A DNA stretch of 64,000 nucleotides from contig OY764216.1 in assembly GCA_963668315.1 (NCBI GenBank), positions 4,608,001-4,672,000 of the forward strand. The letters run 5' to 3'. Below the pieces are notes generated by a model, which worked only from the letters and a program-made list of their open reading frames with translations, was not told the origin of the DNA and ran no database searches. How positions within the stretch are numbered: the stretch's first letter is position 1; every line of letters begins with the position of its first letter. The DNA is from Spirochaetia bacterium. GTDB taxonomy: Bacteria > Spirochaetota > Spirochaetia > DSM-2461. This document shows, piece by piece, positions 24,405 through 42,244 of this stretch. The translations under genes and the position numbers were made by a program.

Positions 24405-24524
24405 CTTTCTACTCCAATAATTATTATTGATTGCAATCATTGGGTAAATGATAGAATTCGTATCAATTTACGAATACGTGTAAAAGTAGTGGAAAATGGG
24501 TAAAAAACAGGGAGGAAGAAGCTA

Positions 24525-25053
24525 CGAGCCACCCCGTGTTTTCCTGAGACACAATTATTTGAGAGAATAGTTTCATGAAAAAGCGGATCATCTATATTCT
24601 TCCATATAAAAGTTGGCTGATGGGTTTTACAATCTATGAATACAGATTCAACCTTGGATGCCTTGGAACAAGCTATTTTTGCTCGATCCCAAGAGAAAAA
24701 TCTTATCCATCAAAGTTACAGAGGTATTCTGTATTTATTAATTAGGTACTCAGAACGCCAATCTGAATCAGGATTTTCTCCATCAGTTAGTAGCGTTAGT
24801 CATATAATAATGCCACGGACGAGACAATCAATGGTCGTTTTTAAGCGGAGATGATTTGGAAAAGAAGTTCTTGGAAAACAATGGAAGACTCAGAATTAGC
24901 CATTCTGGAATAGGAGGACTGGTTCAAGAATCACAGACTTTTGGTGCCAATCGTAGATAATCTTCCCTAAGAATACGAAATGCTGTAAAATAAAAGAGTT
25001 AAAGGTTCGTCTGAATTAGTAGGACTCAAATAAAAAAATCTCTGGGCGGTTCA
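24525..25053 (+). mobile_element. Internally deleted IS3-family remnant with 3-bp CTA target duplication
   Basis: Ends CGAGCCACCCC / GGGCGGTTCA; degenerate DALEQAIFAR...LIHQSYRG..Y..IRYSER integrase core; CTA at 24522-24524 and 25054-25056. Confidence 0.8.
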
Positions 25054-26037
25054 CTATTTCAAGGGGAAACATTTGTGCCAATTATCTTCAAGAGACCGTT
25101 CAGAAAGAACCTCCCCTGTCTTTTTAATTAAATTGGGAAAATGTACTTTGGGGTTTAAATCGGGAGAATCTTTATAATGCATCTGAACGAATTTAATTAT
25201 TGAACATGTTAATTGATATCGACCATCGCCGATCCTCTTAATATATTGCTCTTTTTCTAGATTTTTCAAAACTGATAATACTTGTTCGTATGGATCATGA
25301 ATTAAATCATCCTTTAATAAAATCTCATTCAGAAGGATTTCATAGTCTACCAAATGTAACAGATGCAAATTGAATAGAAACTCCTGATTCTCATTATACT
25401 TGAAAGCCGTTCTCTCTTCTTTAAGTACAATAAGAATTCTAGGGATAATATCCGCAAAACTAAGAAGTTCACAAGCATTTACAAAATCAAGAACAGAAGT
25501 TTCCTCTGACATTCGAATAACCTGTTCTATAACACGAGGATTAATATCCTCTGATTCATTTCGATATAGAATAGAAGCAAGTAAGATTAAAAATCTCTTT
25601 GCATCATTAACATTTCTTATAATGATTTTCTTTTTTTGTTCATGGCTCAATACATCATATCTATTTTTTAAATAAAGCTCATATTCTATCTGTTCATCCG
25701 TAAAGAACTTTACATTTTCCTCAATATACTCAAACTGTTGATCCAACTCGCGCTTAAGAAGCTCTTGGGATGGATCAAGTTGATCTAGTTCCTCTGATAT
25801 GTTCTTCTGCTCTATTTGAGTATGTTGTAAAAGCTGATTTTCAAAAAATGTTTCTTGATAAAAAGAGAATAATGCATCATCCTCAAGATTTTGAGGAATG
25901 GGTAAAAATAAATCCGCATATTTCGCCCGGAAGAAAAGATCATTGGTTTGACCGCTTCTTATAGCATATTCAACATTTTTATAAATCTCAGTTCTTAGTG
26001 ATCCATCATCCGGATAATATTTATGTATTCTAATCAT
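25054..26037 (-). CDS. Hypothetical protein
   Basis: 327-aa ORF coupled to the XRE gene; no motif recognised. Confidence 0.65.
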   Translation of the reverse strand: MIRIHKYYPDDGSLRTEIYKNVEYAIRSGQTNDLFFRAKYADLFLPIPQNLEDDALFSFYQETFFENQLLQHTQIEQKNISEELDQLDPSQELLKRELDQQFEYIEENVKFFTDEQIEYELYLKNRYDVLSHEQKKKIIIRNVNDAKRFLILLASILYRNESEDINPRVIEQVIRMSEETSVLDFVNACELLSFADIIPRILIVLKEERTAFKYNENQEFLFNLHLLHLVDYEILLNEILLKDDLIHDPYEQVLSVLKNLEKEQYIKRIGDGRYQLTCSIIKFVQMHYKDSPDLNPKVHFPNLIKKTGEVLSERSLEDNWHKCFPLK

Positions 26038-26251
26038 TCAATGCTTCTTCTATTGATCTAACTATCTCCCACGCAGGACATCCAATACCACGTGCTATTC
26101 TTATAATTGTTTTCAATGAAGGCATCTTCTTACCGGTTTCTATTTCGGATAAAAAAGCTTTACTCATATCTATACGATTTATGAGTTCATCTTGGGATAA
26201 TCCGGATTTTTTTCTATAGTTACTTATTACTGAACCTATAACTTCCTTCAT
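26030..26251 (-). CDS. XRE-family HTH regulator
   Basis: RKKSGLSQDEL...SKAFLSEIETGKKMPSLKTIIRIA. Confidence 0.88.
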   Translation of the reverse strand: MKEVIGSVISNYRKKSGLSQDELINRIDMSKAFLSEIETGKKMPSLKTIIRIARGIGCPAWEIVRSIEEALND

Positions 26252-26677
26252 TGGAGATAATTATATTAGTTTACGCCTTACAATATGATACGCTATTGAA
26301 TATCATCAATAGTCATATGGATGTATAGGTTACATTAAAGACCTTCTTCCCTGTAACTATTCTCATAGTAGAAAAAAAAAGCCTGCCTTCTCCACCAAGC
26401 GTTACAACGAGTTTTATCAGTATTTCTTATCTACTAAAGCAGCCTTGTCATAGGCATTGTCAAACAAATCGTAATTATTAAAGCCAAATGAGTTATACCA
26501 TACGTATTATTATGAACATAGATTTCTAATATAATAATCTATTACGCTAAAGCGTTATACCAAGTATACCTAATCGTCAATACTATATAATAATGAATTA
26601 AGATAGTTGGAATTATCAATTAATGATGATATTTTAAAAACATTGAATCTTTATTTTTTTTACCTGGAGATATATTT

Positions 26678-26989
26678 ATGGAACAAAATTCGGTTTGTCG
26701 TACAAAACAGTTCTGGGGGATTTGTTTTAATGATAGAAACACAAATTCACCGTATGAGGGAGATTATCTACTGGGAGAAGCTATTTTAAGATTTCACAAT
26801 GGATATCTACATAGCCGTTTAGAAAACGGAAATATAATCCCGGCAGTTGAGTTTCCAGATTTCCATATGGAATACTACTATGAAGGAAAACTACACCGTG
26901 AAGAAAAAGCCGCGATCAGCTCAGATTATGGTAGTATTAAGGAATACTGGGAAAATGGAGAACTTATCAAGGTAGAAACATTTGAATAA
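26678..26989 (+). CDS. Hypothetical protein with LHR..PA/EYWENG-type repeats
   Basis: GGAG RBS; NGYLH...PAVE, EGKLHREEKAAI...KEYWENG. Confidence 0.55.
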   Translation: MEQNSVCRTKQFWGICFNDRNTNSPYEGDYLLGEAILRFHNGYLHSRLENGNIIPAVEFPDFHMEYYYEGKLHREEKAAISSDYGSIKEYWENGELIKVETFE

Positions 26990-27036
26990 GTATTATTTTT
27001 CTGTCTATCTTCAATAGTTGCTTTCTAACAGTCTAT

Positions 27037-27130
27037 CCCGCTCCTCCTTCAAAAGTACATTGTCGGGCAAAAAAACCGCAGCACGGCCGGTCTCTTTCAA
27101 CATAGTGCGAATGTACTGTAGAAAGTTAAG
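27037..27130 (-). pseudogene. Type I R-M methyltransferase (HsdM) fragment
   Basis: LNFLQYIRTMLKETGRAAVFLPDNVL(F)EGGAG with one frameshift. Confidence 0.65.
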
Positions 27131-27427
27131 ACCATCCGAGGTCCAATAAAGCCTTGATTTGCTGCTGTTTTTCTATTTTCAGTACATTCCCCACACTCTA
27201 TCCTCCAAATAGAGGATAAAGGTTAAAAATATTGTCTGAAAATGGCCGCTTTTATGTGCCCGTTAACACAATAGCATCATTTTCGTTTTTGATCTCAAGT
27301 ATTATTTTTTCTTCCACCTCCATTTTCTTATACTCAAGAGAATCATAAATATAAGGCTCATCATCACCCTGATCATGCATTTTATCAAATGCTTCCTTCC
27401 AGCCTATCCGAGTCCCTGCGGATAATC

Positions 27428-27679
27428 TCATTCTATTAACTTAAGCTGGTTATCCCTATTTTCCAGTTTTAGTACAGGTCGATTTGTAGCAGATCCCATA
27501 TCTATTATGCATGCCTTCAATTCCTCAAGACTTGAACCAAAAGGGATAAAAGGTTCTGCATCCCAATAGAGGATATCATCTTCTTAATTGTAATAGACTT
27601 CCCGTATTTGAAAATCTGCTTCTTTAGTCTTCTTTATATAAATAACTCAAAAATCAAAACTATCAATTTCATTATTCAT
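27428..27679 (-). pseudogene. Small hypothetical gene with two in-frame stops
   Basis: MNNEIDSFDF*VIY...IREVYYN*EDDILYWDAEPFIPFGSSLEELK; AAGGA upstream. Confidence 0.5.
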
Positions 27680-27701
27680 TTCGTCACCAATTCCTTAAGA
27701 T

Positions 27702-28496
27702 CTACTCATCGAGACGACGATCAGAATAACTTGGAATACCAAGATCATTTTTTTCAAATGCATCAAGATTGAGAATACCCCTTGAATCAAATTCACATGG
27801 AATATAATTATCCTTAACAAGAATCAATCCCTTCTCAACCATGTATTGGATTATGTCATTGGAATAATAGTTAAGTTCAAGAATCATTACTGGAAGTTTT
27901 TTAAAGTCATTTAAAATAGTGGAAAAAATAATATCTATAATTTCGTATAAAAATCGTGGATCAGAATCATAATTAAACGCACATAATTCTAAACAATGAC
28001 TTCTGTAGAATGTCCTACCAATAATGAATCGTTCAGTAGACAATCTAGTCCAAATTCCTATTGAACCTTTGACTACTATATGCTTACCAGCATCCCCAAT
28101 ATTTGGATTTCTCAGAAAAAATAGGCCATCTTGGCACCTAGAATGGATAGAAATATGATTTGATAAAATTCGAGAATAGCATTCTTTCTCTGATAATGAA
28201 AATTCAGATAAATTCATCTCAAAAGAATCGAAAAAACGATATAATTCTTCTTCAGGAATACCATATCTAGAAATGGCTTTATATAAAAGGGGAAGATCGA
28301 CATTTACATTCCTATGAATTATCTCTTCATCTGAGCCAAAGTGATACCTAATATCCGATATGTTATCTAAACCACCGAAAGAGATCAACTCATCATATAA
28401 ATCATTTAATTTAATTTTCGGATTTAGTTTTTTACTATAATAGTAAACAGGTCTGACGATCTTTTTGATAAAAGATCTATACTCTTTTGCATTCAT
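27702..28496 (-). CDS. Hypothetical protein
   Basis: GAGGAG RBS before MNAKEY; low GC. Confidence 0.65.
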   Translation of the reverse strand: MNAKEYRSFIKKIVRPVYYYSKKLNPKIKLNDLYDELISFGGLDNISDIRYHFGSDEEIIHRNVNVDLPLLYKAISRYGIPEEELYRFFDSFEMNLSEFSLSEKECYSRILSNHISIHSRCQDGLFFLRNPNIGDAGKHIVVKGSIGIWTRLSTERFIIGRTFYRSHCLELCAFNYDSDPRFLYEIIDIIFSTILNDFKKLPVMILELNYYSNDIIQYMVEKGLILVKDNYIPCEFDSRGILNLDAFEKNDLGIPSYSDRRLDE

Positions 28497-28705
28497 AATT
28501 ATACTCCTCTCATTGCAATCTAACCCCTCTTTACTGAATCGCAATAATTGTAAAATTATGATAAAAAAGAATAAAAACTTATGTTGGCATCTAGGAGGAG
28601 AACCTGTTTAAGCTTTACTTCACTAAGTATAAAATGTTTAATAACATTAATCAATTATTTGAGGGTAAGAAAGAAAATTGTTCAAACTAGACTTCCCCGA
28701 TTTCT

Positions 28706-28813
28706 ATACAACGTAAGATTTCTATCCTGCAGAACCCAAATAAAAAAAGTCCCCCTGGTAGCATCCATATCGTCAAAACATCCACCGCTTCTGCGGGATA
28801 GAACTCGTTGTAC
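28706..28813 (-). other. Atypical attC-like hairpin terminating the recombinase/IS91-like unit
   Basis: Minus strand GTACAAC GAG TTCTATCCCGCAGAA ... TTCTGCAGGATAGAA ATCTTAC GTTGTAT; asymmetric spacer. Confidence 0.6.
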
Positions 28814-29099
28814 TCAACCGACTGTATGAAAAAGCTTTCTCCATGGGTCTTGTATTGAATTTCCAGCTTACATGAAAAGTATAATACTGTTCCCTTAATT
28901 AAGAAATAGTGATTTTCCCACTTACCGTAAGAAATAATCCCTATTCCCCTTTGGGAAGAATTATAAAAAGGGCTTTCCCGGGGAAAGTGAGGCATAAAAG
29001 AACAAAGCTCCCCCACGAATCCTATGAACAGGACACGGGTGAGAATAATCGTTCGTATTTTTCCATCAACAATTATCACAGGCCGAGGGCCTGGTCACT

Positions 29100-30259
29100 T
29101 CAGGATACCCTGCAAGGATTTGGCTCAGGACCATGAATACTCCGCCTATTTCCATACAATCCCATGAAGATCATCTCTTTTCCGCATTTGCAACAGACTT
29201 TTTTCTCAAAGTCCCAAGTCTCGACATCCTTATGCGACTCATACTCATTCGCTGGATTTTCTCCTGGTTCATGGGAAAAATCGGGGAGTTCCGTTATGAA
29301 TTGCCGCACTTGCCTTAGGGATTCCCGCCTGTTATGATTACTCATATAACCGAAATATCGTATCTTTCTCATCCCCTTGGGCAAAAGATGAAGAAGAAAA
29401 CGATCAATGAATTCCTCCAAAGGGAGAACCATCCTTTTTCTCTTGTGGCCGGAGGCTCTGTCAATCCATGTGAAATTGACTCTGTCTCCATCTGTGGCAA
29501 CAATCCGCTGCTCGCTGATTCCCACACGGTGTGTATATCGGCCCAGGTACTTAACAACCTGAGCAGGATTTCCAAAAGGCTTTTTGGCATAAACCACAAA
29601 GTTTTTCCGCGCGGCACTCTGTAGATTTTTCTCATAGAGAACCCTGTCGCCAAAGAGAGCCCCCTTATCACAGTATTTTCTGAGTGAACTCAGCAGCTTC
29701 CCCCGAAAAACGACAGACAATTTCTTCACCGGCACCAGATATTTGGGATTCCCCTCAATCCAGTGAGATTTATCAGGAGAGAGGCCTCCCCGGGTAGAAT
29801 ACAGTGCACATGAGGATGATAAAGCAGTTTCTGCGTCCATGTATGAAGAACTGATAATCCCCCTACACCGGCCCCGAGATTCTCCGGATTCTGACATACC
29901 TCAAGAAGTGTCTTATGGGCACTATGAAAAAGAGCTTTGTAGAATAGTTGATGATTCGCACCAGCCAAGTGAAGCAGTTCATGGGGAACCGTAAAGACCA
30001 CATGAAAATAGGGAACCGGCAATAATTCTTCCAGCCGCTTGTCCACCCACCGGACACGGGACGCTCCCTGGCACAAGGGGCAGTGCCTGTCCCGGCAGGA
30101 ATTGTAATGAGTTTCTTTATGCCCGCATTCGCAAACCAAGGTATTACCACCCATCCGATGGGTATGGCAATCCGAAATATGTCCCAGAACCACCCGTTCT
30201 CTCCTGTTCAAACCGGGAAGAGTTTTCCCTATCTCTGCTATTTCTCCCAATTTACTCAT
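29100..30259 (-). pseudogene. IS91-family (Y2 HUH) transposase, 1-nt frameshift at 29788-29791
   Basis: Zn-binding NSCRDRHCPLCQ, YFHVVFTVP, HPHVHCI (HUH), YLGRY (Y2), RKIRYFG; one G missing from PGGG codons. Confidence 0.88.
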
Positions 30260-31115
30260 GAACCGCTTCCCCTCCCTTCAAAGAATCAAGAGGATTGCGG
30301 ACGGTTCTTATATGATGGGCGGCAATATGCAAATATTTTTCCGTCGTCTGGATATCGGAATGGCCTAGAAGAGCCTGTATCGTTCGCAAATCAGTTCCGG
30401 CCTCAAGAAGGTGCGTGGCAAAGGAGTGACGAAAAGTATGGGGAGTCACATGTCTCTCCAATCCTGCTCTCACGGTAAGATTTTGGATGAATCTCTGAAT
30501 GGTAGAGGTATGCATCTTCACATGCCCCCCTCTGCCGGGAAACAGCCATTCATCGGGTTTGACACGGCAGGACCGATAATAAGCCCGTAAAATCTCCAGC
30601 AAATCGGCGCTTAACTGGACTTTTCTATCCTTACCGCCTTTCCCCTGGCGGACATGAAGCAGCATATTCTTACTGTCGATATCGGTGATTTTTAGATTAA
30701 CAAGTTCGCCTATTCTCAAACCGGTACTGTAAAGAGTGGCGACAATAGCATAGTGGCGGGGATTTTTCCGGACTTCAGAAAGCAACAGGGATACTTCCTT
30801 TTTGTTCATTACCTCGGGTAGTTTTTTTCTCATCTTCTGAAAAGGAATATGATTCACCGGCCAATCGACGCCTCTTACTTTCTGAAAATAAAACCGGAGC
30901 GCACAGACCATTTGGTTAAAATGGGACCAGGAAACCTTTTCCTGGTGCACCAGATAATATTGCCATTCATGAATATCTTCGAGTGTTACCAAATCAATGG
31001 GCTTCTCTAGATGGGTCAGATACTTTTTCAGTACGGCGACATAGGTTGATATCGTTTTTTCTGCATAATTGCGGATCACCATGGCTTTGCGCATGGCTTC
31101 TAATTCTTGTGTCAT
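30252..31115 (-). CDS. Tyrosine recombinase (IS91-associated, Xer/IntI-related, lacks IntI-specific insertion)
   Basis: RNYAEKTISTY SAM-like N-terminus; TGLRIGE, GKGGKDR, HTFRHSFATHLLEAG, LLGH, TEKY. Confidence 0.9.
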   Translation of the reverse strand: MTQELEAMRKAMVIRNYAEKTISTYVAVLKKYLTHLEKPIDLVTLEDIHEWQYYLVHQEKVSWSHFNQMVCALRFYFQKVRGVDWPVNHIPFQKMRKKLPEVMNKKEVSLLLSEVRKNPRHYAIVATLYSTGLRIGELVNLKITDIDSKNMLLHVRQGKGGKDRKVQLSADLLEILRAYYRSCRVKPDEWLFPGRGGHVKMHTSTIQRFIQNLTVRAGLERHVTPHTFRHSFATHLLEAGTDLRTIQALLGHSDIQTTEKYLHIAAHHIRTVRNPLDSLKGGEAVHE

Positions 31116-31228
31116 ATAACACCTCCGCCTCTATTGTGAAAAGAGTGACGGATTTATATAACCGGGGAATCTTGATAGGTGGAGAAAAGTGTGATGGTGT
31201 TGAATCCACCGCTGGGTACAGCGGTTTA

Positions 31229-31336
31229 GTTCAACGCCCGCATAACCTGTTTTCCGTACATGGCAGAAATCCTGCCTGCGAAGCAGAAAAGCAGGATTTG
31301 TGCCATAGGAAAATCAGGTTCATGCGATTGTTATAC
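31229..31336 (-). other. attC site
   Basis: R'' GTATAAC, L'' GCATGAAC (extra G) versus L' GTTATGC, second bulge CTGATTTTCC/GGAAAACAG, long stem, R' GTTGAAC; 108 bp. Confidence 0.85.
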
Positions 31337-31523
31337 GGTCCGTTCTTTTTCCCACATCTTTCTCGCTCCCGCCGGAACACAGGAAATGGGTGAAGGTGAT
31401 TCTTATTGATCTATTTTTCATTCTGCTCCATTACCATACTTGAAAGCAAGTCCGAAAACTGATCTGGATGCTTTTCCTTGATTCATATTAAATTGGAATT
31501 GGCAGTAGTCTTCATCTCTGCTG

Positions 31524-32966
31524 CTACTGGTCAAAAAGTAAGCAAGTTGGCGTATAGTTACAGGCACCGCTCCACTCATAACACTGGACAGGTGCTGTCG
31601 CATTTAGCCTATGTCCTAAGAAGAGGGCCAGATGGGAGGGCCCCGCGAAAAATAAGTGTATCTTATCTATAGAAGTCTTGGAAAGCTCAGTGGTAATTGC
31701 CAGCTTCAACTGATTCACCACAACATTTGTATGTTCTGGTGATAAAATAGGAGATGAGCTATTTAGGCTAAGAATTGAAGCTTCTCCAAGGTTTAGCGAA
31801 GGTAGAGCGGGCTTTACATTTTCCTTTATATCACGTGCGATCCCTATAACAATAACCAGATCGGAGCTTATACCATTGTCTTTTATGATAGTGAACTTGT
31901 ATGGTGGTGTTTTTTCGTTTGGAAATGAATCTGTAGACCAGATTTCATTTCGATATATGAGATCAATCGCAAATCCAGAAACTGCAGAGAATATAGACCC
32001 TATTGCTAAGGAAGTAGAGAGACGACGGCTACCAGATAAAGAGATTCTACGTGATTTACGATTCTCCTTAATCCAACTGATTGTATCTACTAATTCACCA
32101 ATTATATGTGCGTTCCAATGCTCAGGGGTAGGATATTCTCTTTTTTCGCCTCCGAAAAATGAATTCCATTGAAAACACAAGTCAGTACTATTGCAGATCT
32201 CTGTATTCGTAGAAGTATGCAGTGATATTGATTGTTCTGGTGGGCATTTTTTCTTCAGTACATCATTAATTGAAGCCTCTAAATCTATACGAAATACAGG
32301 TTCATTAAGCTTTTTGATTCGTGATTCAAATTCTGAGAATAATAAACCGATCTCTCTACTTGTTAGATCTTCAAATCTTGGTAGGTTCTCGTCAAGCCCT
32401 TGGCGGAAGAGCGCTTCTGCATCATTGCGAGCCAAGCTGAAATTTGGAAGTATTCTAACATGATCAAAAAGAAAACGAGCATCTTGCACTGAGTGTCCGG
32501 TATTTGCTACACGTTGTTCAAACTCTTTGTAAGTATTATTAATTACCGATGACTGGGAACCATAAAAATCATATGGTTCTCTCACTCTTCGGAGTGCATG
32601 TTCTATAGATTCTATCTCCGGTGAAATCCCAACAGAAGCTAATGTGAATGATCTATAAGTACTTGGACATCCTGCATGAATTTCTTTGAATCGATTAATC
32701 TCGTCCCAGAACTCAGCAGGAGTTACTCGATGATCTTTTGCCTCCCAAAGATCAATAATCATTCCTTGACCCGGAATGAAAAACTTGATTTCAATATCAC
32801 CGATTAGTTCACTGGCAATTGCAGTAAAACCTTCTTGTGCAAGCCATTTGGGAAGTTGGGATAAAAGTACTCCATCCTGAAAAGTAAAACCCTTCTGAGC
32901 TATTTCACCTCCCGTAGATTGAGGTTCAAGCAGTGATGGAGTTGGTTTAGAATTTTTCTTTGTCAT
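31524..32966 (-). CDS. cap4: CBASS Cap4-type effector (endonuclease + SAVED)
   Basis: SLLEPQSTGGEIAQKGFTFQD...DIEI...EAKDH...EFWDEINRFK as recalled for Cap4 nucleases; SAVED tail IHLFFAGPSHLALFLGHRLN...YEW...Y. Confidence 0.88.
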   Translation of the reverse strand: MTKKNSKPTPSLLEPQSTGGEIAQKGFTFQDGVLLSQLPKWLAQEGFTAIASELIGDIEIKFFIPGQGMIIDLWEAKDHRVTPAEFWDEINRFKEIHAGCPSTYRSFTLASVGISPEIESIEHALRRVREPYDFYGSQSSVINNTYKEFEQRVANTGHSVQDARFLFDHVRILPNFSLARNDAEALFRQGLDENLPRFEDLTSREIGLLFSEFESRIKKLNEPVFRIDLEASINDVLKKKCPPEQSISLHTSTNTEICNSTDLCFQWNSFFGGEKREYPTPEHWNAHIIGELVDTISWIKENRKSRRISLSGSRRLSTSLAIGSIFSAVSGFAIDLIYRNEIWSTDSFPNEKTPPYKFTIIKDNGISSDLVIVIGIARDIKENVKPALPSLNLGEASILSLNSSSPILSPEHTNVVVNQLKLAITTELSKTSIDKIHLFFAGPSHLALFLGHRLNATAPVQCYEWSGACNYTPTCLLFDQ

Positions 32967-33435
32967 ATATGTCGTTCTCCAATACAGTTTCTATCGGTTC
33001 ATATGATCCCTCTGGGAAAAAAATATATGAAGCTGCATCAAAGTTGATTCCAGATTGTTTTACAAGTAGCAGCATTACGAAATTCGCTCCAACAGATTTA
33101 TCTCCAACGATTCTAAACATTGTATTAACATCTGTGATGCTTGGATTTAAACTGAAAGCAGGGTGGGAATGCCATTCTCCTAAGTAATTGTACCGTTTAT
33201 ATTCAAAATTTGTTCTACGGAAAAAACTCTGGAGAGTAGATGCCAAACCTTTTAAAACACGTATAAACGATGTAAATGTACCTGTTTGGTGTTGGATAGT
33301 TATCTCCACCACACGGAATGTATTTTCAGCGACATGTTCTCCCATCAAAATACCGCCTATTTCTTTATCCCCAGCTATTTTGAGAGAATCATGCAGTCGA
33401 TTTATAATCTTACTCGGCAGAAGAATTTTGATCAT
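32947..33435 (-). CDS. cap3: CBASS Cap3 JAB/Mov34 peptidase
   Basis: EIGGILMG, YLGEWHSHP...PSITD. Confidence 0.9.
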   Translation of the reverse strand: MIKILLPSKIINRLHDSLKIAGDKEIGGILMGEHVAENTFRVVEITIQHQTGTFTSFIRVLKGLASTLQSFFRRTNFEYKRYNYLGEWHSHPAFSLNPSITDVNTMFRIVGDKSVGANFVMLLLVKQSGINFDAASYIFFPEGSYEPIETVLENDIYDKEKF

Positions 33436-35197
33436 TCTTTTTCTCCAATAGTTTACCAATAAACTCAACAGTATCTTTTTTTATTTGTTCTGTTGGCTGT
33501 TTAGATCCTATGTGTGTCTCCTTTAGGTGTTTAGTATCAATAGGAATATTATGAAATGGTTGAGAAAATACCCAGGATCTTTTTAATCCGATTAAGTATA
33601 GCGAGTATGGGTAGGTTGACGGTTCTCGATCCAAGACTGTGTCTATAGCCAAATTAGTTGCATTGGATGCTATTACATTAACATCTGCATCCGAGGCTAT
33701 TATTACATGTCCTTCAGTATTTTCTAAAGCGTAAGATGTTGTTGCGACTCCCTCCTCAAAAGGATGTTCCTCTGTATATCGCAAGTAAGCTGCTCGTATA
33801 ACTTGAGGATCAGGGTCCTTCTTCGGGCGACTTCTTGCTATCAATCCACCAATTCCTCCAGCAAATACTTCTGCCCATATAAGAGGTACCTTATTTTGCC
33901 GGAAAACTCCTGACATTATATTGAAAACCTGAGATGAGGCAGTCATATCCAATATCATGTCGCATTGAGATAACTTATCGAGTACTCCATTTAATACAGC
34001 AGGATTCTCTTGACCTGTAACATTTACCTTGGAGATCTCTATTTTCGCATCATACACGATACTGTCGATGGCTTTGGCAACAGCAGCAGCTTTATGCTCT
34101 CCAACGCTGTTCCAATCAAGTTCATGGCGGCATAAGTTTTCAGGCATTAGAATGTCATCATCAACTAAAAAAAAATCTTTCACACCCATACGGGCAACAG
34201 ACACAGCGACTTTTGATCCAAGAGAACCAAGACCAATTATTCCAATTCGTTTCTCGGCTAAGGTTTGCAATTCAACTTGTGTACGGGGTAGGTTTGAATT
34301 ATTATCAGGTATTATGTTGCCGGTATGCCAAAGTTCATCTTCTTTATAGGACGTGAAAACATGGAGAACATGATCTTGATCAGTAATAATAATTACTCCA
34401 GGAGGTTTTTCGAGTCCATATTTCGGTATGGATTCTGACCAAGAAAGAGATATATCCTTATAGCCAGCTGCTTTAAGAGCCTCTTCCATCTCACTCAACG
34501 TCGAAAGCTTAGTTATGGAAGAATGTTTAAGTTCTGTGGTGAAAATAAGACCCTGACTGAACCATACATTTCTCTTATTACGGAGTGTGTTGGGAATCTC
34601 TGCATCTTTCCATTCATCAAAAGAAAGTGGTGAAACCTCATGAATAAGGAGTGTATAGGCATCTCTTTGATACTGATTTGAGTATCGAATCGTTCCTGAT
34701 GTTAGATTTGGAAGTGATCCAACATACTGTTGTAGTTTATTGCCTATATAAATTCGTTCAATAGTCTTTCGGAGTTTCTGACCCATGGTAAGATAATGTC
34801 GTGATGGAGCAATCACAGAAGTCTCTGATCCGAGAGGATTCTCTATTTCAAGAAGTCTGAATACGCTTTCCAGAACTTGTGCTCCAGTGACCGTAGAAAT
34901 CCATGTATCAGGGCCCCATTCGAGACAAAGTGAACCATCTCTGTATTGATGTGATGACCATGATTCTGAAGGATTTGCCGGTCGAACTATGGGGGGCGCA
35001 AAAGGAAAATGATTCGGATAAGTCATCAGAATATTGTACGTGATGCCATGGGCTTTTACAGCTGCATTAATAGCGAGTCCGTCACTTGATAATGTCCACT
35101 CAGTGCCGATGAGCCAACTATTGTTATGATGAAGCTGAGTAATGGCCGTTCGTTCCTCGTTCAATCGATCCGGATTAGATAAAAACCAGAAATCCAT
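33410..35197 (-). CDS. cap2: CBASS Cap2 E2-E1 (ThiF) fusion
   Basis: E2-like YPNHFPFAPP...HQY..GSLCL; E1 IGLGSLGS...DDD...ENLCRH. Confidence 0.9.
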   Translation of the reverse strand: MDFWFLSNPDRLNEERTAITQLHHNNSWLIGTEWTLSSDGLAINAAVKAHGITYNILMTYPNHFPFAPPIVRPANPSESWSSHQYRDGSLCLEWGPDTWISTVTGAQVLESVFRLLEIENPLGSETSVIAPSRHYLTMGQKLRKTIERIYIGNKLQQYVGSLPNLTSGTIRYSNQYQRDAYTLLIHEVSPLSFDEWKDAEIPNTLRNKRNVWFSQGLIFTTELKHSSITKLSTLSEMEEALKAAGYKDISLSWSESIPKYGLEKPPGVIIITDQDHVLHVFTSYKEDELWHTGNIIPDNNSNLPRTQVELQTLAEKRIGIIGLGSLGSKVAVSVARMGVKDFFLVDDDILMPENLCRHELDWNSVGEHKAAAVAKAIDSIVYDAKIEISKVNVTGQENPAVLNGVLDKLSQCDMILDMTASSQVFNIMSGVFRQNKVPLIWAEVFAGGIGGLIARSRPKKDPDPQVIRAAYLRYTEEHPFEEGVATTSYALENTEGHVIIASDADVNVIASNATNLAIDTVLDREPSTYPYSLYLIGLKRSWVFSQPFHNIPIDTKHLKETHIGSKQPTEQIKKDTVEFIGKLLEKKNDQNSSAE

Positions 35198-36201
35198 TAT
35201 GCAAATTTCCCCGGTCGTTTTGGTGTAATTGGTTTATTAGGAAAAGACAGGCCGTCAGAGATGACCGCTGCAGATAGAAGACCCTCATCTCTTGAATCAG
35301 ATTTTCCAGATGTTGGAAATCGATCTCCAAATAGAATTCGCCATTTACCAAGAGCAGTCTGATCATCCTGCTCTTCACAAGCTTCTCGGCCAAGTTCTCC
35401 ATGATTTTTTGCCTTATTATAGAATCCCTTGAAGGCATCAAATGACATCCCGTTTGTAATTGAATTTCCTGGTACTGCCGGATCTTCAATAAATGGAACG
35501 ATTCCACTATCAATTGCCCATGAATATTTCTCAACAAATCTTTCGAGTGTTCCCAGGAAAAGTTCTACATATTGAGTTTCATTAAGATCGGCACACTCTG
35601 ATGCAATAACTTCAATAACAAATCCCTTAGGCTTTTTATTTACTGTAGGATTCTCTCTACGCCACCACTTTAGAAGTTTAACCAGAGGTTTGAATACCCC
35701 ATTACTGGATTTATTAACATCCGTAGTCCATAGAGTATGGCCAGGAGGATTTGTAACAAGCCACTCTCCAAGTTTTCGATCAGGAATGTATAATGTACCT
35801 TCTATTCCATTGGGGGCAATTATCGGAACTACATCCATGTCAGTTTTCGATGTTTCTATACCGACAGACCGTGCTTGCCGGCGTATATTGGAATACTCTT
35901 TAGCTAAGGTTTTATAAAGCAATTCAATAACATCACCTGGTTTGTCTGAAAGTGTATGATTTGTAACAACTATTATATCAACGTCGGGGCGATCGGTATC
36001 TCCATTTTTCATATGTGGTCTTATGGCTGTATCACGTTTATAAGAACCTGAAAGAAATGTTGCGGTATGATACTCTTTAAAATCTTCATCAGCTTGAAGA
36101 AAATTCCTTAGTTTAGTGTGAGCTGAGCTTGCATTTGCCTTTGTTGTTGAACTAGGTTCTATATCTCTTAGAAAGTCCTTGAACTGTGATTGAATTGACA
36201 T
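35197..36201 (-). CDS. CD-NTase (cGAS/DncV-like cyclic oligonucleotide synthase)
   Basis: [14 protein letters not shown]...DVDII, MDVVP, TNP, KLLKWWR; tail [11 protein letters not shown] typical of Cap2 substrates. Confidence 0.9.
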
Positions 36202-36248
36202 TTAATAGCCCCCTTCGATACAATTTTACACTTTTTTAGATTTTATCC

Positions 36249-36355
36249 GTATAACGCCGTTTTGAGCTGCTGGCTTTGTCCCGAAGGGTTGGCGTAGTTT
36301 TTGAGAACTCAAAAACTATGACAAAAAAACAGACTGCTCCAAAACCTTGTTATGT
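36249..36355 (-). other. attC site
   Basis: R'' ACATAAC contains the stop codon of the 81-aa ORF; L'' TTTTGGAGC (extra G) versus L' GCTCAAAA; inner stem TAGTTTTTGAG/CTCAAAAACTA; R' GTTATAC; 107 bp. Confidence 0.87.
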
Positions 36356-36595
36356 GTCTCTTTCCTTCTTTAATATTTCTAATTCTATTAATCGCATTTT
36401 ATATGCTAAATATGAGATACTAATCATTGATATATTTGTCGTAAAAATTATAGAAACATATAGAATTAACTGATTTACAGTTAGGTTTTGAGTGATATTA
36501 TTACCAAAGATTATTGTTAGGGCTAATATTGTAAGAATAGCGATTATGAAGATTATCTCATAAACCCAGAATATTTTCACTATTTTTTCTTTCAC
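36350..36595 (-). CDS. Small two-TM membrane protein (last gene of cassette 1)
   Basis: Two hydrophobic helices; GAGGAGG upstream of GTG; TAA inside attC R''. Confidence 0.65.
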   Translation of the reverse strand: MKEKIVKIFWVYEIIFIIAILTILALTIIFGNNITQNLTVNQLILYVSIIFTTNISMISISYLAYKMRLIELEILKKERDT

Positions 36596-37166
36596 GCTTT
36601 AACCCTCCTCTAACTGTTTCTTGTTTAACTTTTTCCCACTCTGCCTTTAGTATTTTTTTGATATTCTTCCTTAATCTTTCAATATATTTATCATCAATTT
36701 CTAGATAATATTTTCCTTGGTAAATTCTTTTTAACTTTTCTAAATCTTTGATCAAATTAATGTCATCATCATCATTCAATCTTAAAATGGATAATTCGAT
36801 TTTTGTCACTATTTCATAATTTTTTGATTCTCTTAGCTTTTTTTCATGAGATATATCACGAACAAAGTCGTTATATTCATAAAGATCTTCAGAGCTAGGA
36901 TCATCACCAGGATAACCGACCTCTTTGTCATCAATTTCAACTTTTTGACAAAATCTCAAAGTACTTGTATGTGATAATATTTGAGAGAAATCATTTCTGA
37001 GTGTATCAATCCATAAAATTCTTTGATTTGTAACTGTTTCGATGTATTTTTGTGTCTTTATATTTTTTCTAGTATATACGACTGTCAATAAAGAAATTAC
37101 TACTGCTAAAAATGCAACTATAGTTGATACGTTATCAAGTATGAAATTTTTCAAAGAAACCTCCAA
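36558..37166 (-). CDS. Hypothetical protein with N-terminal TM helix
   Basis: TIVAFLAVVISLLTVVY followed by a charged helical domain. Confidence 0.7.
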   Translation of the reverse strand: MEVSLKNFILDNVSTIVAFLAVVISLLTVVYTRKNIKTQKYIETVTNQRILWIDTLRNDFSQILSHTSTLRFCQKVEIDDKEVGYPGDDPSSEDLYEYNDFVRDISHEKKLRESKNYEIVTKIELSILRLNDDDDINLIKDLEKLKRIYQGKYYLEIDDKYIERLRKNIKKILKAEWEKVKQETVRGGLKRERKNSENILGL

Positions 37167-37167
37167 T

Positions 37168-38823
37168 TTAAAGTTTTTTTCCAGTTATTTTTAAAAATTC
37201 ATCTTCCGAAATATACTTATTGGGATGAACATCAGATGAAAGGTTAAATACTAGTTTTCTTAGCTTTTCGTACTTTGGATTTGTATCAAAATCATCACGT
37301 AAAATATGCTGATAAACATTGTAAGGTTTGTCTTTCTCAATACTTTCTCCTAAGTAATAATCCTCAAAATCAGTAATATGTACTATTGGATATACAAGAC
37401 CAGATGATTTTTGACATTCTTCAAGAATTCTCTTATTTATCGTCCACATAGGATTTCTCTTCCCTGCTTTTGTTGTCTCTGTATCAGAATCATGAAGAGC
37501 TATTGCTTTTGATTTGAATTTATTTATGATCTTAATGTAGGTAGGAATATTTGCTTTCCCTCTGCAATTTAATATATGAAAACCATCAGTATCATATTTA
37601 TTACAAAGAATTTTTAGAGCCGTTTCTTCTGTTTCTCCTTCTATCAGTACTATGTTTTCATAAAAGAAAAACTCATTTGTTAACGGATTACAAAGATTAA
37701 TCATTTTCAAATTATTCTTTTCATCTGTTGAAAATTCTGATTCTTCGGTTTGAAAGTATCTAATACTTTCTTGATTATTAGAAACCTTAATTATCGTTGT
37801 ATGATCTTTACTGAGGTCAATAAACACAGGGCTATGTGTTGTACATATAATTTGCCATCCAGCAACTTCAGATAAAGCATAGAGCGCTTCTCTCGCAGAC
37901 CTTACAACAGATGGATGTAGATTTACTTCAGGTTCATCTAATAATAAAACTTTAGGATCGCTGTTAGTAACATTCATTCTTCCTTTTTTAAGGATACCCT
38001 TACTTGCATAAGCTTTTATGGCTGACCATAGGAATGCTCTTTGAATACCTGATCCTTGATTACACAAAGGAGCTTTCATATTATTTGTAGTAAATATAAA
38101 TTGACTACCTTCCTTTATTGACTTTTCAGGTTCAAATTTTCCAACATTTGTGTCAAATATTACGCCTGTATCTGGGAAAGAAGATTGCATCGATTCTATT
38201 AATGAATCATTTATTTCATTAAGATCTGATGATATCTCTTTTTCAATTTCTTTACCCAATACTCTTATCTGATCGACAATTTTGGTTATTTTAGTTTTAT
38301 CCTTAGCAATGCTTTTAGATACTTCTTTCGCAATTAAATCTTTAACAATTGTTTCTAATTTATCTGTTGTATCAAATGGACTAATTCTTATTGGAACTGG
38401 CAGTTTACTCTTTAAAATTGAATCCCAACCTCCAGCTCCTCCTGGTTTCCATGTGTTGGTTTTATTGCTGAAACTAAATTTCTTTCCTTTTTCATCAGGA
38501 GCATTCCACTCAAATTGGAATTTCGAGCAATTACCATATTCTTGATCATCAGCGATAAACCATTCCTGACCTATTGATTTAATATCGTCTTCTGTAATGT
38601 CATCAAAAATGCCGGTTATTCTTACAGGTTTTGAAATATCTTGATCATTGAAATCAGTTAGTTTTAATGCACTACCTAATGAGAAATAAGCTTCATATGC
38701 ATCCAATACAGTCGATTTACAACAATTATTTGGTCCAATTAGCACAACAATTTCATTAATTAATATCTTTATTGGATTTTTAATTCCTTTGAAATTCTCA
38801 ATTTCTAAAGCTTTTAATTTCAT
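37168..38823 (-). CDS. OLD-family ABC-ATPase + TOPRIM nuclease
   Basis: IENFKGI, GPNNCCKST, QGSGIQR, LLLDEPEVNLHP, TTHSP, LIEGETE, HDSD; AGGAG RBS. Confidence 0.88.
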   Translation of the reverse strand: MKLKALEIENFKGIKNPIKILINEIVVLIGPNNCCKSTVLDAYEAYFSLGSALKLTDFNDQDISKPVRITGIFDDITEDDIKSIGQEWFIADDQEYGNCSKFQFEWNAPDEKGKKFSFSNKTNTWKPGGAGGWDSILKSKLPVPIRISPFDTTDKLETIVKDLIAKEVSKSIAKDKTKITKIVDQIRVLGKEIEKEISSDLNEINDSLIESMQSSFPDTGVIFDTNVGKFEPEKSIKEGSQFIFTTNNMKAPLCNQGSGIQRAFLWSAIKAYASKGILKKGRMNVTNSDPKVLLLDEPEVNLHPSVVRSAREALYALSEVAGWQIICTTHSPVFIDLSKDHTTIIKVSNNQESIRYFQTEESEFSTDEKNNLKMINLCNPLTNEFFFYENIVLIEGETEETALKILCNKYDTDGFHILNCRGKANIPTYIKIINKFKSKAIALHDSDTETTKAGKRNPMWTINKRILEECQKSSGLVYPIVHITDFEDYYLGESIEKDKPYNVYQHILRDDFDTNPKYEKLRKLVFNLSSDVHPNKYISEDEFLKITGKKL

Positions 38824-38848
38824 ATGAACTCCTGAACATTTATTATAC

Positions 38849-38885
38849 ACATAACAATACAGTTATACTGTATCAATACAATACT
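38849..38885 (-). other. attI-like simple recombination site
   Basis: Minus strand GTATTGTATTGATACA GTATAAC TGTATT GTTATGT; GTTATGTGT is complementary to ACACATAAC at the end of cassette 1. Confidence 0.6.
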
Positions 38886-39010
38886 CAGCCCATATTGTGT
38901 TCCTGAAAACTATAAATAGCCTTTAAATACCATCAAAGCCATGTTTAAAGATGAAAGATAAAGAGCAAAAAGTACTTATTTCGCCCCTTTTATATCTTCA
39001 CATATTATTC

Positions 39011-39039
39011 ACAATACACCCAAATCATTCATCCATCAA
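39011..39039 (-). promoter_or_regulatory. Candidate Pc-like promoter facing the cassettes
   Basis: TTGATG-N17-TATTGT. Confidence 0.35.
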
Positions 39040-39080
39040 CATTTTTACAATATAATAAGACAATTAAAAGTAAGCAAAAA

Positions 39081-39110
39081 TAAAAAAAGCCCGGTTTTAT
39101 ACCGAGCTAA
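39081..39110 (-). terminator. Intrinsic terminator after the integrase operon
   Basis: AGCTCGGT-ATAAA-ACCGGGGCT followed by a T run on the minus strand. Confidence 0.6.
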
Positions 39111-39130
39111 AATATCAAGTGAGGCCCCTC

Positions 39131-39739
39131 CTATATTCCGGATAACCTTCGCCTTATCCGCCTCACCTCATTATCATCATCCTCAACCCAGACACATACT
39201 AAACGCTTCCCCTCCCCTATCTTTTCCCTGGCTTCAGTCAGAGAAAACCCCTTAATCTTATTCTCCCCAATGTACAAAGACGCACCTCGTACCGTCATGA
39301 TTCCGTCAACGGGTATAACAGGATATACGTTTAGCTCATCACGCTTGCGGATATTGTAATCTTTTAACTGTCTCACACTCATGGATTTAAGGCGCTTAAA
39401 ATACATGGGATCACGATCAGCAATAGTAGAATCGATCATCTGCACTTTACTAAGATTGTCCGAAAGTTTGATATTTTCACCCTTCAATTCCAATTGATAA
39501 CGTAAAAATAGCTCGCCCGCATGGGCAAGTCTCAGACTCTCCCGATACTTCAAATGAGTCCTCTCCATCCTAATGTAATCTTTCCATGACTTGGCTACTT
39601 GTAAGTACAACCCTTCCATCTTAATCGTCGCCAAGGCCACAGCCAGATTAGCCATGGCCTTCTTAACGCCATACTCTACGGATCTCATGAAACCCTCGAT
39701 ATCATAAAGGGTGGTACCCTCAGGAAAAAACTCATTCAT
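39131..39739 (-). CDS. Hypothetical protein translationally coupled to the integrase
   Basis: ATGA overlap with integrase stop; 202 aa. Confidence 0.7.
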   Translation of the reverse strand: MNEFFPEGTTLYDIEGFMRSVEYGVKKAMANLAVALATIKMEGLYLQVAKSWKDYIRMERTHLKYRESLRLAHAGELFLRYQLELKGENIKLSDNLSKVQMIDSTIADRDPMYFKRLKSMSVRQLKDYNIRKRDELNVYPVIPVDGIMTVRGASLYIGENKIKGFSLTEAREKIGEGKRLVCVWVEDDDNEVRRIRRRLSGI

Positions 39740-40893
39740 ACCACACCCCTTTCCAGCTTCTGCCTGGCATCAGTGAAATTGATGACCTGTCCCGCATGAG
39801 AATACCTATCCATCATATTACTGCTCTTATGTCCCGCCAAAGCCATAATCGCCAGATCAGGCAAACCGGCCATTCGTGCCAAAGTTACAAAGCTATGACG
39901 AAGCCCATGGAAAGTAAGGTTGCGTTTCTTCCGCTGTTCCTCATCAATCCCCAGATTGCGTAAAAGACGAATGAATCCCTTCCTTATAATAGTGTTACTA
40001 AAAGGTTCATCAACAGACTCTTTAGAAAAATGGACAAAATCATTCTCACCCGTTCGGGGAGAAATCCTTTTCAAATTCAGAAGGATAGGAATAAGAGAAC
40101 TATGAAGTATAGTCTGTCGATTTGATCCAGCCTTACATCCCTTAAGTCCCTCCGAATCCACCCAATTATGACGAATATTCAGCAGTTGCCGATCAAAGTC
40201 TATATCCCCCCACTGCAACCCCCGTACTTCTCCTCTACGAAGCCCACAGAAAGCTGCAAGAAGTATAGCCGACTTAACCCTCAAATCATCCTCTTGAAGC
40301 CCCAGAAGGGCTTCAGTTTCGTCTACAGTAAGTACTCCCCTCTCCTTCTCCTGGTATCGAATCGGAGAGATTTTCAATAGTGGATTCTCAGGAATCTCAT
40401 CCCGACTATAAGCGAAGGAATAAGCAGTTTTCAAAGTCTGAATAAGTGTATTAATCCGTCTCTTCCCTACACCCTTCTCAACCAGCCAGAGCTTCCAGTC
40501 ATTCACCATACCGGCGGTCAGCTCACTGATTCTCAGCTTCTTAAAGGGAGGATAGGTTTCGATATAATATTTGATACCCGATTGATTCACCCTTAGGTAA
40601 TCAGCGGAAAGAGGACGTCCTTCCACCAGGCTGCGATACTTACAGTACCGACTCCCTTCCTGCCAGAAATCCTTTAGAAATGTGATTAGATAGCTGTAAT
40701 CCTCAAAGGACACTTCCTCGGCCATAACAAGAGCTTTATTGTAAGCTTCCTGCCAGCGGCCCTTCTTTCCTTTGACCTCTACCCCTGTGGAACGGGTAGC
40801 CTCATAACGATTGGTAGAAGGGTTCAGAAACCTCACATACCATACAGAACCTGCCTTCAAATTCCTTATAAACAAGGAAACCGGAGCCCGCAT
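39736..40893 (-). CDS. Phage/island-type tyrosine integrase
   Basis: GLRRGE, FHGLRHSF, AGHKS, DRYSH; AGGAGG RBS before ATG 40893; adjacent to tRNA 3' end. Confidence 0.92.
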   Translation of the reverse strand: MRAPVSLFIRNLKAGSVWYVRFLNPSTNRYEATRSTGVEVKGKKGRWQEAYNKALVMAEEVSFEDYSYLITFLKDFWQEGSRYCKYRSLVEGRPLSADYLRVNQSGIKYYIETYPPFKKLRISELTAGMVNDWKLWLVEKGVGKRRINTLIQTLKTAYSFAYSRDEIPENPLLKISPIRYQEKERGVLTVDETEALLGLQEDDLRVKSAILLAAFCGLRRGEVRGLQWGDIDFDRQLLNIRHNWVDSEGLKGCKAGSNRQTILHSSLIPILLNLKRISPRTGENDFVHFSKESVDEPFSNTIIRKGFIRLLRNLGIDEEQRKKRNLTFHGLRHSFVTLARMAGLPDLAIMALAGHKSSNMMDRYSHAGQVINFTDARQKLERGVV

Positions 40894-40914
40894 AAAACCT
40901 CCTTTCTTTCGAAA

Positions 40915-40937
40915 ACGTGTAACACGACGTGTAACAC
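40915..40937. repeat. Direct repeat ACGTGTAACAC x2, candidate integrase arm-type sites
   Basis: 40915-40925 and 40927-40937, between tRNA and integrase start. Confidence 0.6.
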
Positions 40938-41049
40938 CTTGGGTTTTATTACGATCTCCGGTTTTCCGGTCGAAAGTAATAATCAAATTGACTACTACCA
41001 AGTTCTTACTATACATAAAATTATATACAAGTAATGAACTTTTGTAAGT

Positions 41050-41123
41050 TGGGCCCACAAGGACTTGAACCTGGGACATCTTGATTATGAGTCAAGCGCT
41101 CTAACCAACTGAGCTATAGGCCC
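41050..41123 (-). tRNA. tRNA with CAT anticodon (probably Ile2, otherwise Met); CCA not encoded
   Basis: GGGCCTATAGCTCAGTTGGTTAGAGCGCTTGACTCATAATCAAGATGTCCCAGGTTCAAGTCCTTGTGGGCCCA folds as a cloverleaf. Confidence 0.95.
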
Positions 41124-41258
41124 TTATACGAGCGACAATACTACTTAAAAGTCTGACTTCTGTCAATAGCCCCGAAAACAATAATCCCCCCCTTTCTCCT
41201 CTATGTAAAAATGCCTAAGACTTGAGCATCCCCCCGAAAAGGCATACAATAGCGGATT

Positions 41259-42050
41259 ATGCACATAATCGACGCCCACGCCCACATTTTCCCCCCGAAA
41301 ATCGCCCGGAAAGCCAGTCGCTCCATCGGCTCCTTCTACGACGCCCCCATCCAGTACAACGGCTCGATCGAAGAGCTGATCGCCAGCGGGGATAAAATCT
41401 CCGTCGATTACTACATCGTCCATTCCACCGCGACCAAGGCGGATCAGGTCTGCTCCATAAACGACTTCATCATCGACTCCTGCCGGGTCGAATCCCGCTT
41501 CATCGGCTTCGGCACCATGCACCCCGCCTTCTCCGATGTCCGCGGCGAATTCACCCGCATGCAGGCGGGCGGACTCAAAGGCCTGAAACTCCACCCCGAC
41601 TTCCAGAACGTCGCCGCCGACGATCCCTCCCTGGACCCGACCTACGAGGAACTGGTCTCCCGCGACATGCCCGTCCTTATCCACGCCGGCGATTTCCGCT
41701 ACGACTTTTCCGGTCCCCTCCGCCTCTCCCGGGTTCTGGACAGGCATCCCCGCCTCAAAATGATCGCCGCCCACTTCGGAGGCTACACCCAATGGAAGGA
41801 GTCCTTCGACCATCTGGCCGGCCGCAACTGCTGGTTCGACACCTCCAGCACCCTCTGGGAACTCCCCGCCGACAAAGCCCGCCTGATCTTCGAAAAACAC
41901 GGCGCCGACCGTTTCCTCTTCGGCTCCGATTTTCCCATGTGGGACCACTCCGAAGAGCTGAAAAGGCTGGAAATGCTCAACCTGAGCGACAAGGAACTAC
42001 AGGCCGTCCTCTGGGACAACGCCGCCGACCTCCTCTCCTTGGCCCCCTAG
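41259..42050 (+). CDS. Amidohydrolase_2-family protein
   Basis: IIDAHAH, GLKLHP, IHAG, AAHFGG, LFGSDFP. Confidence 0.9.
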   Translation: MHIIDAHAHIFPPKIARKASRSIGSFYDAPIQYNGSIEELIASGDKISVDYYIVHSTATKADQVCSINDFIIDSCRVESRFIGFGTMHPAFSDVRGEFTRMQAGGLKGLKLHPDFQNVAADDPSLDPTYEELVSRDMPVLIHAGDFRYDFSGPLRLSRVLDRHPRLKMIAAHFGGYTQWKESFDHLAGRNCWFDTSSTLWELPADKARLIFEKHGADRFLFGSDFPMWDHSEELKRLEMLNLSDKELQAVLWDNAADLLSLAP

Positions 42051-42244
42051 GCGAAAGGCCCCTTCCCCGACCCGATTCATGGGGGAGCCCCCGCTCACGC
42101 GGGCCGGGCTTTCCCCTCCAATTCGCTTAACCAGGATGCTGTTTCCGGCTTCCCGCCGGGCATCCTTGGCTCATTTCCGGTACAATCCCTGTCTCGATTT
42201 CCTTTTTGCTTGATCTTCCCGGGGAAACAAAATAAAATGAACCC

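Follow-up and report, generated by a model that had tools for sequence, protein, structure and literature searches.

Analysis of a 64-kb stretch of a Spirochaetia bacterium chromosome (assembly GCA_963668315.1, contig OY764216.1, positions 4,608,001 to 4,672,000; hereafter the window) revealed that two consecutive units on its minus strand are, as judged from their sequence, two real integron gene cassettes, which encode an OLD-family nuclease and an entire four-gene cyclic-oligonucleotide-based anti-phage signaling system (CBASS) operon, respectively. Together they make up an integrase-less array with an unusually large defense cassette, lodged in a tRNA-Met island, and the array is accounted for by known integron biology. 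In our preferred reading, to which we assign a probability of about 65%, the integron integrase (IntI) of the host likely put the OLD cassette and the 5-kb CBASS cassette into the island in trans at a secondary GTT site, after which a separate recombinase–IS91 element probably entered the attC site of the CBASS cassette at its GTT. Coordinates below are those of the window unless prefixed C1:, which denotes the whole chromosome, and comparisons drew on 38 genomes of the same family, on a set of 401 genomes, and on contigs from sequencing runs, including those of a second study.

Two cassettes with canonical attC sites

36255–38854, minus strand: cassette 1 (unit 1), 2,600 bp, 29.6% GC, head and tail complementary at 9 of 9 positions
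37168–38823, minus strand: OLD-family ATPase–TOPRIM nuclease, 551 amino acids (PADLOC Old, 273.8 bits; Pfam AAA_15 and OLD-like TOPRIM)
36558–37166, minus strand: open reading frame (ORF) of 202 amino acids without a Pfam, PADLOC, NCBIfam, or PHROGs match
36249–36355, minus strand: attC of cassette 1, canonical, of the host family (covariance model 89.5 bits; nhmmer E 3e-16)
31235–36254, minus strand: cassette 2 (unit 2), 5,020 bp, the entire four-gene CBASS operon, head and tail complementary at 9 of 9 positions, no internal attC
31229–31336, minus strand: attC of cassette 2, canonical, of the host family (75.1 bits; nhmmer E 8e-11), with unit 3 at its R' GTT

The G/TT crossover points of the minus strand were located at 38855, 36255, 31235, and 28712, exactly where the initial annotation had placed them, and the complementarity that it described between the head of each unit and its own end was likewise confirmed (9/9, 9/9, and 12/14 for units 1, 2, and 3). 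In units 1 and 2, the head is complementary to the cassette's own R'' box. These matches go beyond chance, since an identical 9-mer was shared in just 1.3% of pairs among the 22 other cassette heads of the genome; the head 9-mer of the CBASS cassette was found again in one of those 22. Both attC sites possess R'', L'', L', and R' boxes with an extra, extrahelical base in L'', and in both the bottom strand folds more stably than the top strand (−21.6 versus −17.5 kcal/mol for 36249–36355 and −30.9 versus −29.5 kcal/mol for 31229–31336), with computed probabilities of the recombinogenic pairing of 0.90 and 0.56, respectively. In agreement with the two canonical folds that had been read here from the letters alone, our home-built covariance model, trained on 22 attC sites outside the window and displaying compensatory changes in 21 of 32 pairs, recognized both sites, as did an nhmmer profile built from 16 non-window sites. 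The covariance model identified no attC inside the cassettes and none at the end of unit 3 (E ≤ 10); the proposed array of three cassettes is thus reduced to two, as the terminal stretch of unit 3 (28706–28820) does not qualify as a canonical attC.

The array resembles attC-site clusters that have no integrase (CALINs) and single attC sites without one (SALINs), as outlined in the parts of PMC4889954 and 10.1101/2022.09.11.507474 considered here, in its attC-bounded cassettes without a neighboring intI, in the presence of an integron elsewhere in the genome, and in a first insertion at a plain GTT. It carries two attC sites on one strand, the minimum for a CALIN, and the only match above the IntI cut-off lies 1.5 Mb away; as no intI adjoins the array, it is not a complete integron. 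Unlike CALINs and SALINs, it rides in a tRNA island, and a gap of 4,912 bp separates its attC sites, whereas IntegronFinder by default clusters sites spaced by less than 4 kb.

A fourth cassette head starting with GTTGTATAG at 28712 was ruled out, as the complementary tail is absent from 20500–28712; elsewhere in the genome the motif occurs three times, each time as an arm of a composite site. A 12-nt motif (28687–28700), immediately right of the junction at 28712, has further copies at C1:3400415 and within the resident integron, in its first cassette. The OLD protein was present in none of the other genomes among the 38 searched, and a promoter scan performed at chance level (17 found versus 17.3 expected).

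A complete CBASS operon as cassette cargo

35197–36201, minus strand: CD-NTase (SMODS cyclase), 334 amino acids (Pfam, PADLOC)
33410–35197, minus strand: Cap2-like E2–E1 protein, 595 amino acids (PADLOC E1–E2, 600.5 bits)
32947–33435, minus strand: Cap3-like JAB protease, 162 amino acids (Pfam, PADLOC)
31524–32966, minus strand: Cap4 endonuclease–SAVED effector, 480 amino acids (NF051438, 206.3 bits; cut-off 160)

In a type II CBASS, one operon encodes a CD-NTase, Cap2 (E1–E2), Cap3 (JAB), and an effector. Cassette 2 contains this gene set as four open, abutting frames, and both its signaling and its anti-phage activity are predicted accordingly from gene content. The same four genes in the same order were observed in 17 of 35 related CBASS loci from metagenomes. 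Both flanks were available for 11 of the 35, and neither the covariance model nor a heuristic scan, both of which may miss divergent sites, detected an attC at the end of any of these 11 operons, so the large CBASS cassette is a single case so far; unlike those relatives, the operon here lies between a cassette head and an attC. To the closest non-cassette relative, similarity at the DNA level (70%) is restricted to 36213–31533, that is, from the ribosome-binding site to the last codons or stop. Since the homology stops at the limits of the operon and none of the 11 relatives has an attC, the operon was likely packaged between head and attC in this lineage, and the route may have been either cassette genesis or insertion into a small pre-existing cassette. 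The CD-NTase (E ≤ 1e-40) was found in no other of the 401 genomes.

Defense genes as cargo are also known from the anti-phage cassettes of sedentary and mobile integrons (10.1101/2024.07.02.601686; 10.1101/2024.07.02.601719). There, integron defense systems are stated to 'never exceed 2 components' (10.1101/2024.07.02.601686), and the sole CBASS-like cassette met in the portions of the two reports considered has two ORFs. In contrast to these streamlined systems, a single cassette of 5,020 bp is filled here by four full-length genes, although the supplementary system lists of the two papers may hold larger ones. Within the genome, cassette 2 is longer than all of the 23 other measured cassettes except one of 5,310 bp, which contains an insertion sequence. 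The novelty lies in the size and completeness of the CBASS cassette, which is larger than the published integron defense cassettes. IntegronFinder's 4-kb clustering distance was chosen as double the length of the largest cassettes known at the time, about 2 kb (PMC4889954), and cassette 2 goes uncounted under this default because its attC gap exceeds it.

The genesis of cassettes is still unsettled (PMC5371416). The cargo here coincides exactly with a four-gene operon, its ribosome-binding site and final stop included, and every model of genesis has to leave room for a cassette of this size; the case is also a concrete reason to widen the distance threshold in surveys of integron defense. A wider generalization, which we hold as doubtful, would be that cassettes can accommodate whole defense operons of at least 5 kb that the 4-kb rule misses, so that the 'streamlined' rule is partly an artifact, that intI-less tRNA islands of spirochaetes dock cassettes with the host integrase and ferry them between lineages, and that a rolling-circle element with an attC-like site parasitizes the same crossover.

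A distant integrase and its attC family

The absence of an IntI gene, noted in the initial annotation, holds within the window but not for the genome. A profile search (TIGR02249, cut-off 265 bits) revealed a single match above the cut-off, an intact IntI of 411 amino acids (C1:3134145–3135380, 360.9 bits) that heads its own array 1.5 Mb from the window. IntI is present in 24 of the 38 family genomes. Across the genome, the covariance model returned 37 matches, corresponding to 36 distinct attC sites of one family, two of which are those in the window. Moreover, a 407-nt cassette segment is common, at 95% identity, to the intI array and to an array without intI at a distance of 150 kb, a finding compatible with exchange in trans. 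The suggestion that an IntI acting in trans mobilized the defense cargo is supported for units 1 and 2, whose attC sites belong to the family of the IntI found in the host. A distant IntI inserts cassettes at secondary GWT sites, and small CALINs may originate in this way (10.1101/2022.09.11.507474); half of the CALINs lie in replicons that encode an IntI (PMC4889954). In the present genome, single cassettes at plain GTT sites, distant from any intI, were also noted at C1:2135427 and C1:2958986.

CALINs can also come from the loss or rearrangement of intI (PMC4889954), and the array could accordingly be a block cut from a former complete integron and later carried by the island. In favor of such a history, the arrays of this genome are riddled with insertion sequences, but no intI remnant was found near the window, where TIGR02249 matched only the unit 3 recombinase and, with a weak score, the island integrase; neither an insertion-sequence end nor an attC remnant lies upstream of 38855, and the first head is intact directly at the GTT. 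We consider this origin quite unlikely. An insertion sequence, together with a 1,278-amino-acid ORF, also occupies the first cassette of the resident integron (C1:3135521–3140831), directly behind its attI.

Unit 3 is a separate recombinase–IS91 element

28712–31234, minus strand: unit 3, 2,523 bp, 45.7% GC, with boundaries conserved in relatives
31205–31235, minus strand: unit 3 head, made up of GTT, GAAC, and a short palindrome and resembling terIS as described in PMC13181058
30252–31115, minus strand: tyrosine recombinase, 287 amino acids (TIGR02249, 198.5 bits, below the cut-off of 265), with catalytic motifs and without the IntI-specific insertion
29100–30259, minus strand: Y2 transposase of the IS91 family, with a frameshift that divides it into two overlapping frames, each above the NF033538 cut-off
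28706–28820, minus strand: private end hairpin with a 14-nt arm complementary to the head and a G/TT crossover at 28712; not a canonical attC

By its gene content and ends, unit 3 is a self-standing two-gene element with its own end site and not an ordinary cassette. A standard attC at its end was ruled out, as the covariance model gave no hit, the central spacers are asymmetric (3 versus 7 nt), and an extrahelical base is lacking. The element lies in forward orientation at the R' crossover of the cassette 2 attC. Three relatives with 80–82% protein identity begin at the same GTTGAAC, and the two whose upstream sequence was available are each preceded by a different attC (L031, 61.5 bits; L033, 28.6 bits); the far end, reached in two relatives, is conserved up to the GTT and diverges beyond it. 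In a contig of the second study, the same 30-nt head was observed behind another attC-like sequence, and in one contig an unrelated 48-nt sequence, probably another insertion, was found in place of the unit 3 head after 31231. A GTT at both ends with variable bases beyond was found in the window and in eight relatives. Among these wider comparisons, one Bacteroidota genome contains three copies (99.7–99.96% identical) at as many sites, all with a terminal GTT on either side and with differing flanks, rhizobial plasmids carry the same gene pair with the same end design, and a similar recombinase–IS91 pair resides on pNGR234a. The Y2 gene lies downstream in 33 of 79 loci with a related recombinase. 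GAAC and the palindrome are conserved in all 29 heads located, a chosen set with several near-duplicates, where the preceding triplet is GTT in 19, ATT in one, and another in nine (Bacillota, mostly Clostridiaceae). The recombinase is 30% identical to the host IntI and leaves TIGR02249 positions 180–235 unmatched, so it falls outside the IntI family both by score and by the missing insertion. The frameshift in the Y2 gene, which is one long frame in relatives L031 and L032, is real, since four sequencing runs show no indel relative to the window.

The Y2 HUH transposase, here in a frameshifted copy, and the tetranucleotide beside a palindrome (terIS) place unit 3 with the IS91 family. Classical members insert beside a fixed tetranucleotide and have nothing repeated at both ends (PMC13181058). 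Unlike IS91, IS801, and IS1294 as portrayed in that source, unit 3 has a GTT at both ends, four variable bases after its far end, a terminal 14-nt inverted repeat, a private hairpin, and an attC crossover as its target. ISShvi3, an IS91-like element beside an attC in Shewanella, also has an upstream recombinase, and the part of its description considered (PMC9229058) contains no analysis of the ends. The literature searched held no account of such an end structure or target rule, nor of a class of attC-homing elements of this kind.

The initial annotation also offered a non-IntI recombinase within the array as a possible mobilizer, in which case the unit 3 enzyme would have built the array or would still reshuffle it. 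It has all catalytic motifs and 30% identity to IntI, and because the element lands on an attC GTT, either this recombinase or IntI must process attC as a target. However, the enzyme lacks the IntI insertion, both attC sites belong to the family of the host IntI and differ in geometry from the element's own end site, the recombinase is a single copy in a genome with 36 host-family attC sites, and its relatives travel without cargo cassettes and arrive alone after unrelated attC sites. We therefore regard the recombinase as part of a separate element and its role as builder as a slim prospect.

CTX phage and other integrative mobile elements exploiting Xer (IMEXs) integrate a rolling-circle single strand through a folded attachment site and a tyrosine recombinase. 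By analogy with these elements (IMEXs are mentioned in PMC9345347), we propose that the unit 3 recombinase would join the element ends at the GTT, that the joined ends would fold (computed at −19.2 kcal/mol, versus −14.8 kcal/mol for the integrated form), that the Y2 protein, whose gene is broken in the window copy, would produce a single-stranded circle, and that the recombinase would insert this circle at an attC crossover through its own folded end site. Unit 3 differs from IMEXs in carrying its own recombinase and in targeting attC instead of dif. Such a cycle would tie rolling-circle transposases to integron-type recombination. No IntI above the cut-off was detected in the five hosts of distant relatives, all of which are draft or metagenome assemblies of unstated completeness. 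Short recombinases without Y2 were further noted in two Aquimarina records (L086 and L097), whose shared sequence ends at a GTT and continues into different DNA; this pattern resembles an integron platform in Bacteroidota.

The tRNA-Met island and the entry site

41050–41123, minus strand: tRNA-Met(CAT), likely the integration target of the island; the tRNA 3' end recurs as a 47-bp copy at a distance of 125 kb
39736–40893, minus strand: island tyrosine integrase, 385 amino acids from an ATG behind a ribosome-binding site (PF00589; TIGR02249, 28.8 bits; ORF scan 39736–41079)
39131–39739, minus strand: partner ORF of the island family, 202 amino acids, without a Pfam or PHROGs family
38849–38885, minus strand: entry site with its G/TT crossover at 38855, ATAAC and GTT separated by six nucleotides within a 7-bp palindrome, unlike the attI sites of the family

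The proposal of a tRNA-integrated island was borne out as to the tRNA-Met, which was the sole match in an Rfam scan of the window, and the integrase, but the 47-bp repeat of the tRNA 3' end was found outside the window, at C1:4524001–4524047. An island end inside the window was ruled out, as no tRNA repeat occurs there, and from the distance of the 47-bp copy the island probably reaches far beyond it. The partner ORF has three further genomic copies, each behind an integrase. In a run of the second study, 24000–31134, 31231–36303, and 36278–41078 differ from the window by 0, 0, and 1 letters, whereas the sole second-study contig over the adjoining chromosome (41049–42127) differs by 99 letters of 1,077 and 8 gaps. 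A near-identical island beside divergent chromosome suggests a recent transfer of the island together with the array, and the island would thus carry the array between hosts. The cassette order in the second study is that of the window, and no alternative cassettes were found in relatives; the 'swappable' nature attributed to the array is putative. GC skew places the bottom strands of the attC sites on the template of the leading strand, which matches the resident array; since this orientation limits excision (PMC5371416), the array is likely a slow-turnover store and not rapidly shuffled. The contig joints of 31239 to 36249 and of 25686 to 39072 were rejected as rearrangements, as their 24-letter sides come from other attC sites or repeats.

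In general, attI sites are poorly conserved. The entry site at 38855 had been called attI-like; the sequence exists as described, but it is unlike the 13 family attI candidates, picked by eye upstream of intI genes, from which we built a matrix. Against a background of 4,191 AT-rich GTT sites, its score was matched by 27%, while the resident attI ranked in the top 0.4%; two true candidates were themselves weak in leave-one-out (3.7% and 15%). Neither the sister islands nor the equivalent tRNA site of a genome from the same genus (G013) has this entry site. In a search for a conserved attI with its 16-mer across the 38 family genomes, the matches in four others all fell in coding DNA, with four control hits, and viral contigs gave no match. 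A collapsed attC at 38855 was also rejected, as the upstream intergenic DNA holds no matching head. Given the poor matrix score and the lack of conservation in the relatives reached, the entry site is more likely a secondary GTT site than an attI.

Alternatively, the island family might be a dedicated hitchhiker that comes with a docking site of its own (an orphan attI or a mimic of attI), where it collects defense cassettes by means of the host IntI. We keep this as the main rival because three of the four islands of the family in this genome have cassette sites downstream of the integrase and partner ORF, namely the window, an island at C1:4859–4872 kb (four attC sites and a SIR2–HerA cassette), and a tRNA-Pro island with long sites of a second type. 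The window moreover has two cassettes behind one entry site, and the first junction of the sister island scores as an attI (top 0.12%). The window site, on the other hand, does not fit the matrix and is not common to the sister islands or to the same-genus tRNA site, its 16-mer matches are chance hits in coding DNA, and no host-family attC was found in four related island stretches elsewhere (L021–L024), which are short contigs; we judge the docking site improbable.

Under the preferred history, the chromosomal IntI would have acted in trans to insert the OLD and CBASS cassettes at a secondary GTT of the island, and unit 3 would have entered the GTT of the CBASS attC later. Several observations weigh against this history. 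The inverted pair at the entry site (ATAAC, 6 nt, GTT) occurs in 0.19% of the background sites and is unusually neat, which a random secondary site would not need, and the attI-like score of the sister island's junction points the same way. The lack of attC at the 11 evaluable CBASS relatives and the draft state of the five distant unit 3 hosts also count here. The divergent flank at 41049–42127 may belong to another strain of a mixed sample. At these junctions, contigs from five runs, in which assembly drops rare variants, showed neither a circle nor an empty site nor any other cassette, and three of the compared runs may be the window's own source. Finally, none of the 401 genomes contained a relative with the flanks of this island.

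Further observations in the island family and genome

Scans for the partner ORF in the genome and in metagenome contigs revealed no related island with other cassettes, and none of the other genomes among the 401 contained the 280-amino-acid ORF that lies right of the array. Tandem islands lie at tRNA-Met (C1:4482963–4649123), with 3' repeats of 47 bp (4524001) and 20 bp (4482963) and an integrase at 4522617–4523798. The sister island at C1:4859354–4871790 (L027) encodes an integrase, the partner ORF, RecT, Gam-like, and SSB genes, and carries an attI-like site at 4864575 without an intI, as well as four cassettes, including a 3,327-bp SIR2–HerA pair.

A second cassette system was identified at C1:5010731–5031600, where a 266-amino-acid recombinase without the IntI insertion diverges from about 15 genes in a row, with long (150–200 nt) TAAC...GTT sites of another family between them. 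Sites of this second type also occur in the tRNA-Pro island (C1:3437–3446 kb), and a 919-nt segment is shared between the two at 94%. Host-family attC hairpins are nested in second-type sites, with complementary arms around them, at C1:3437806, 4547465, 5021656, and 5025230.

To the right of the array, the island contains a replication-initiator-like ORF (23115–24026; PF14297, PHROGs replication initiation) and a 413-nt segment (21068–21480) that is repeated at 94% identity at C1:4621858–4622270, near which contigs of two studies end.

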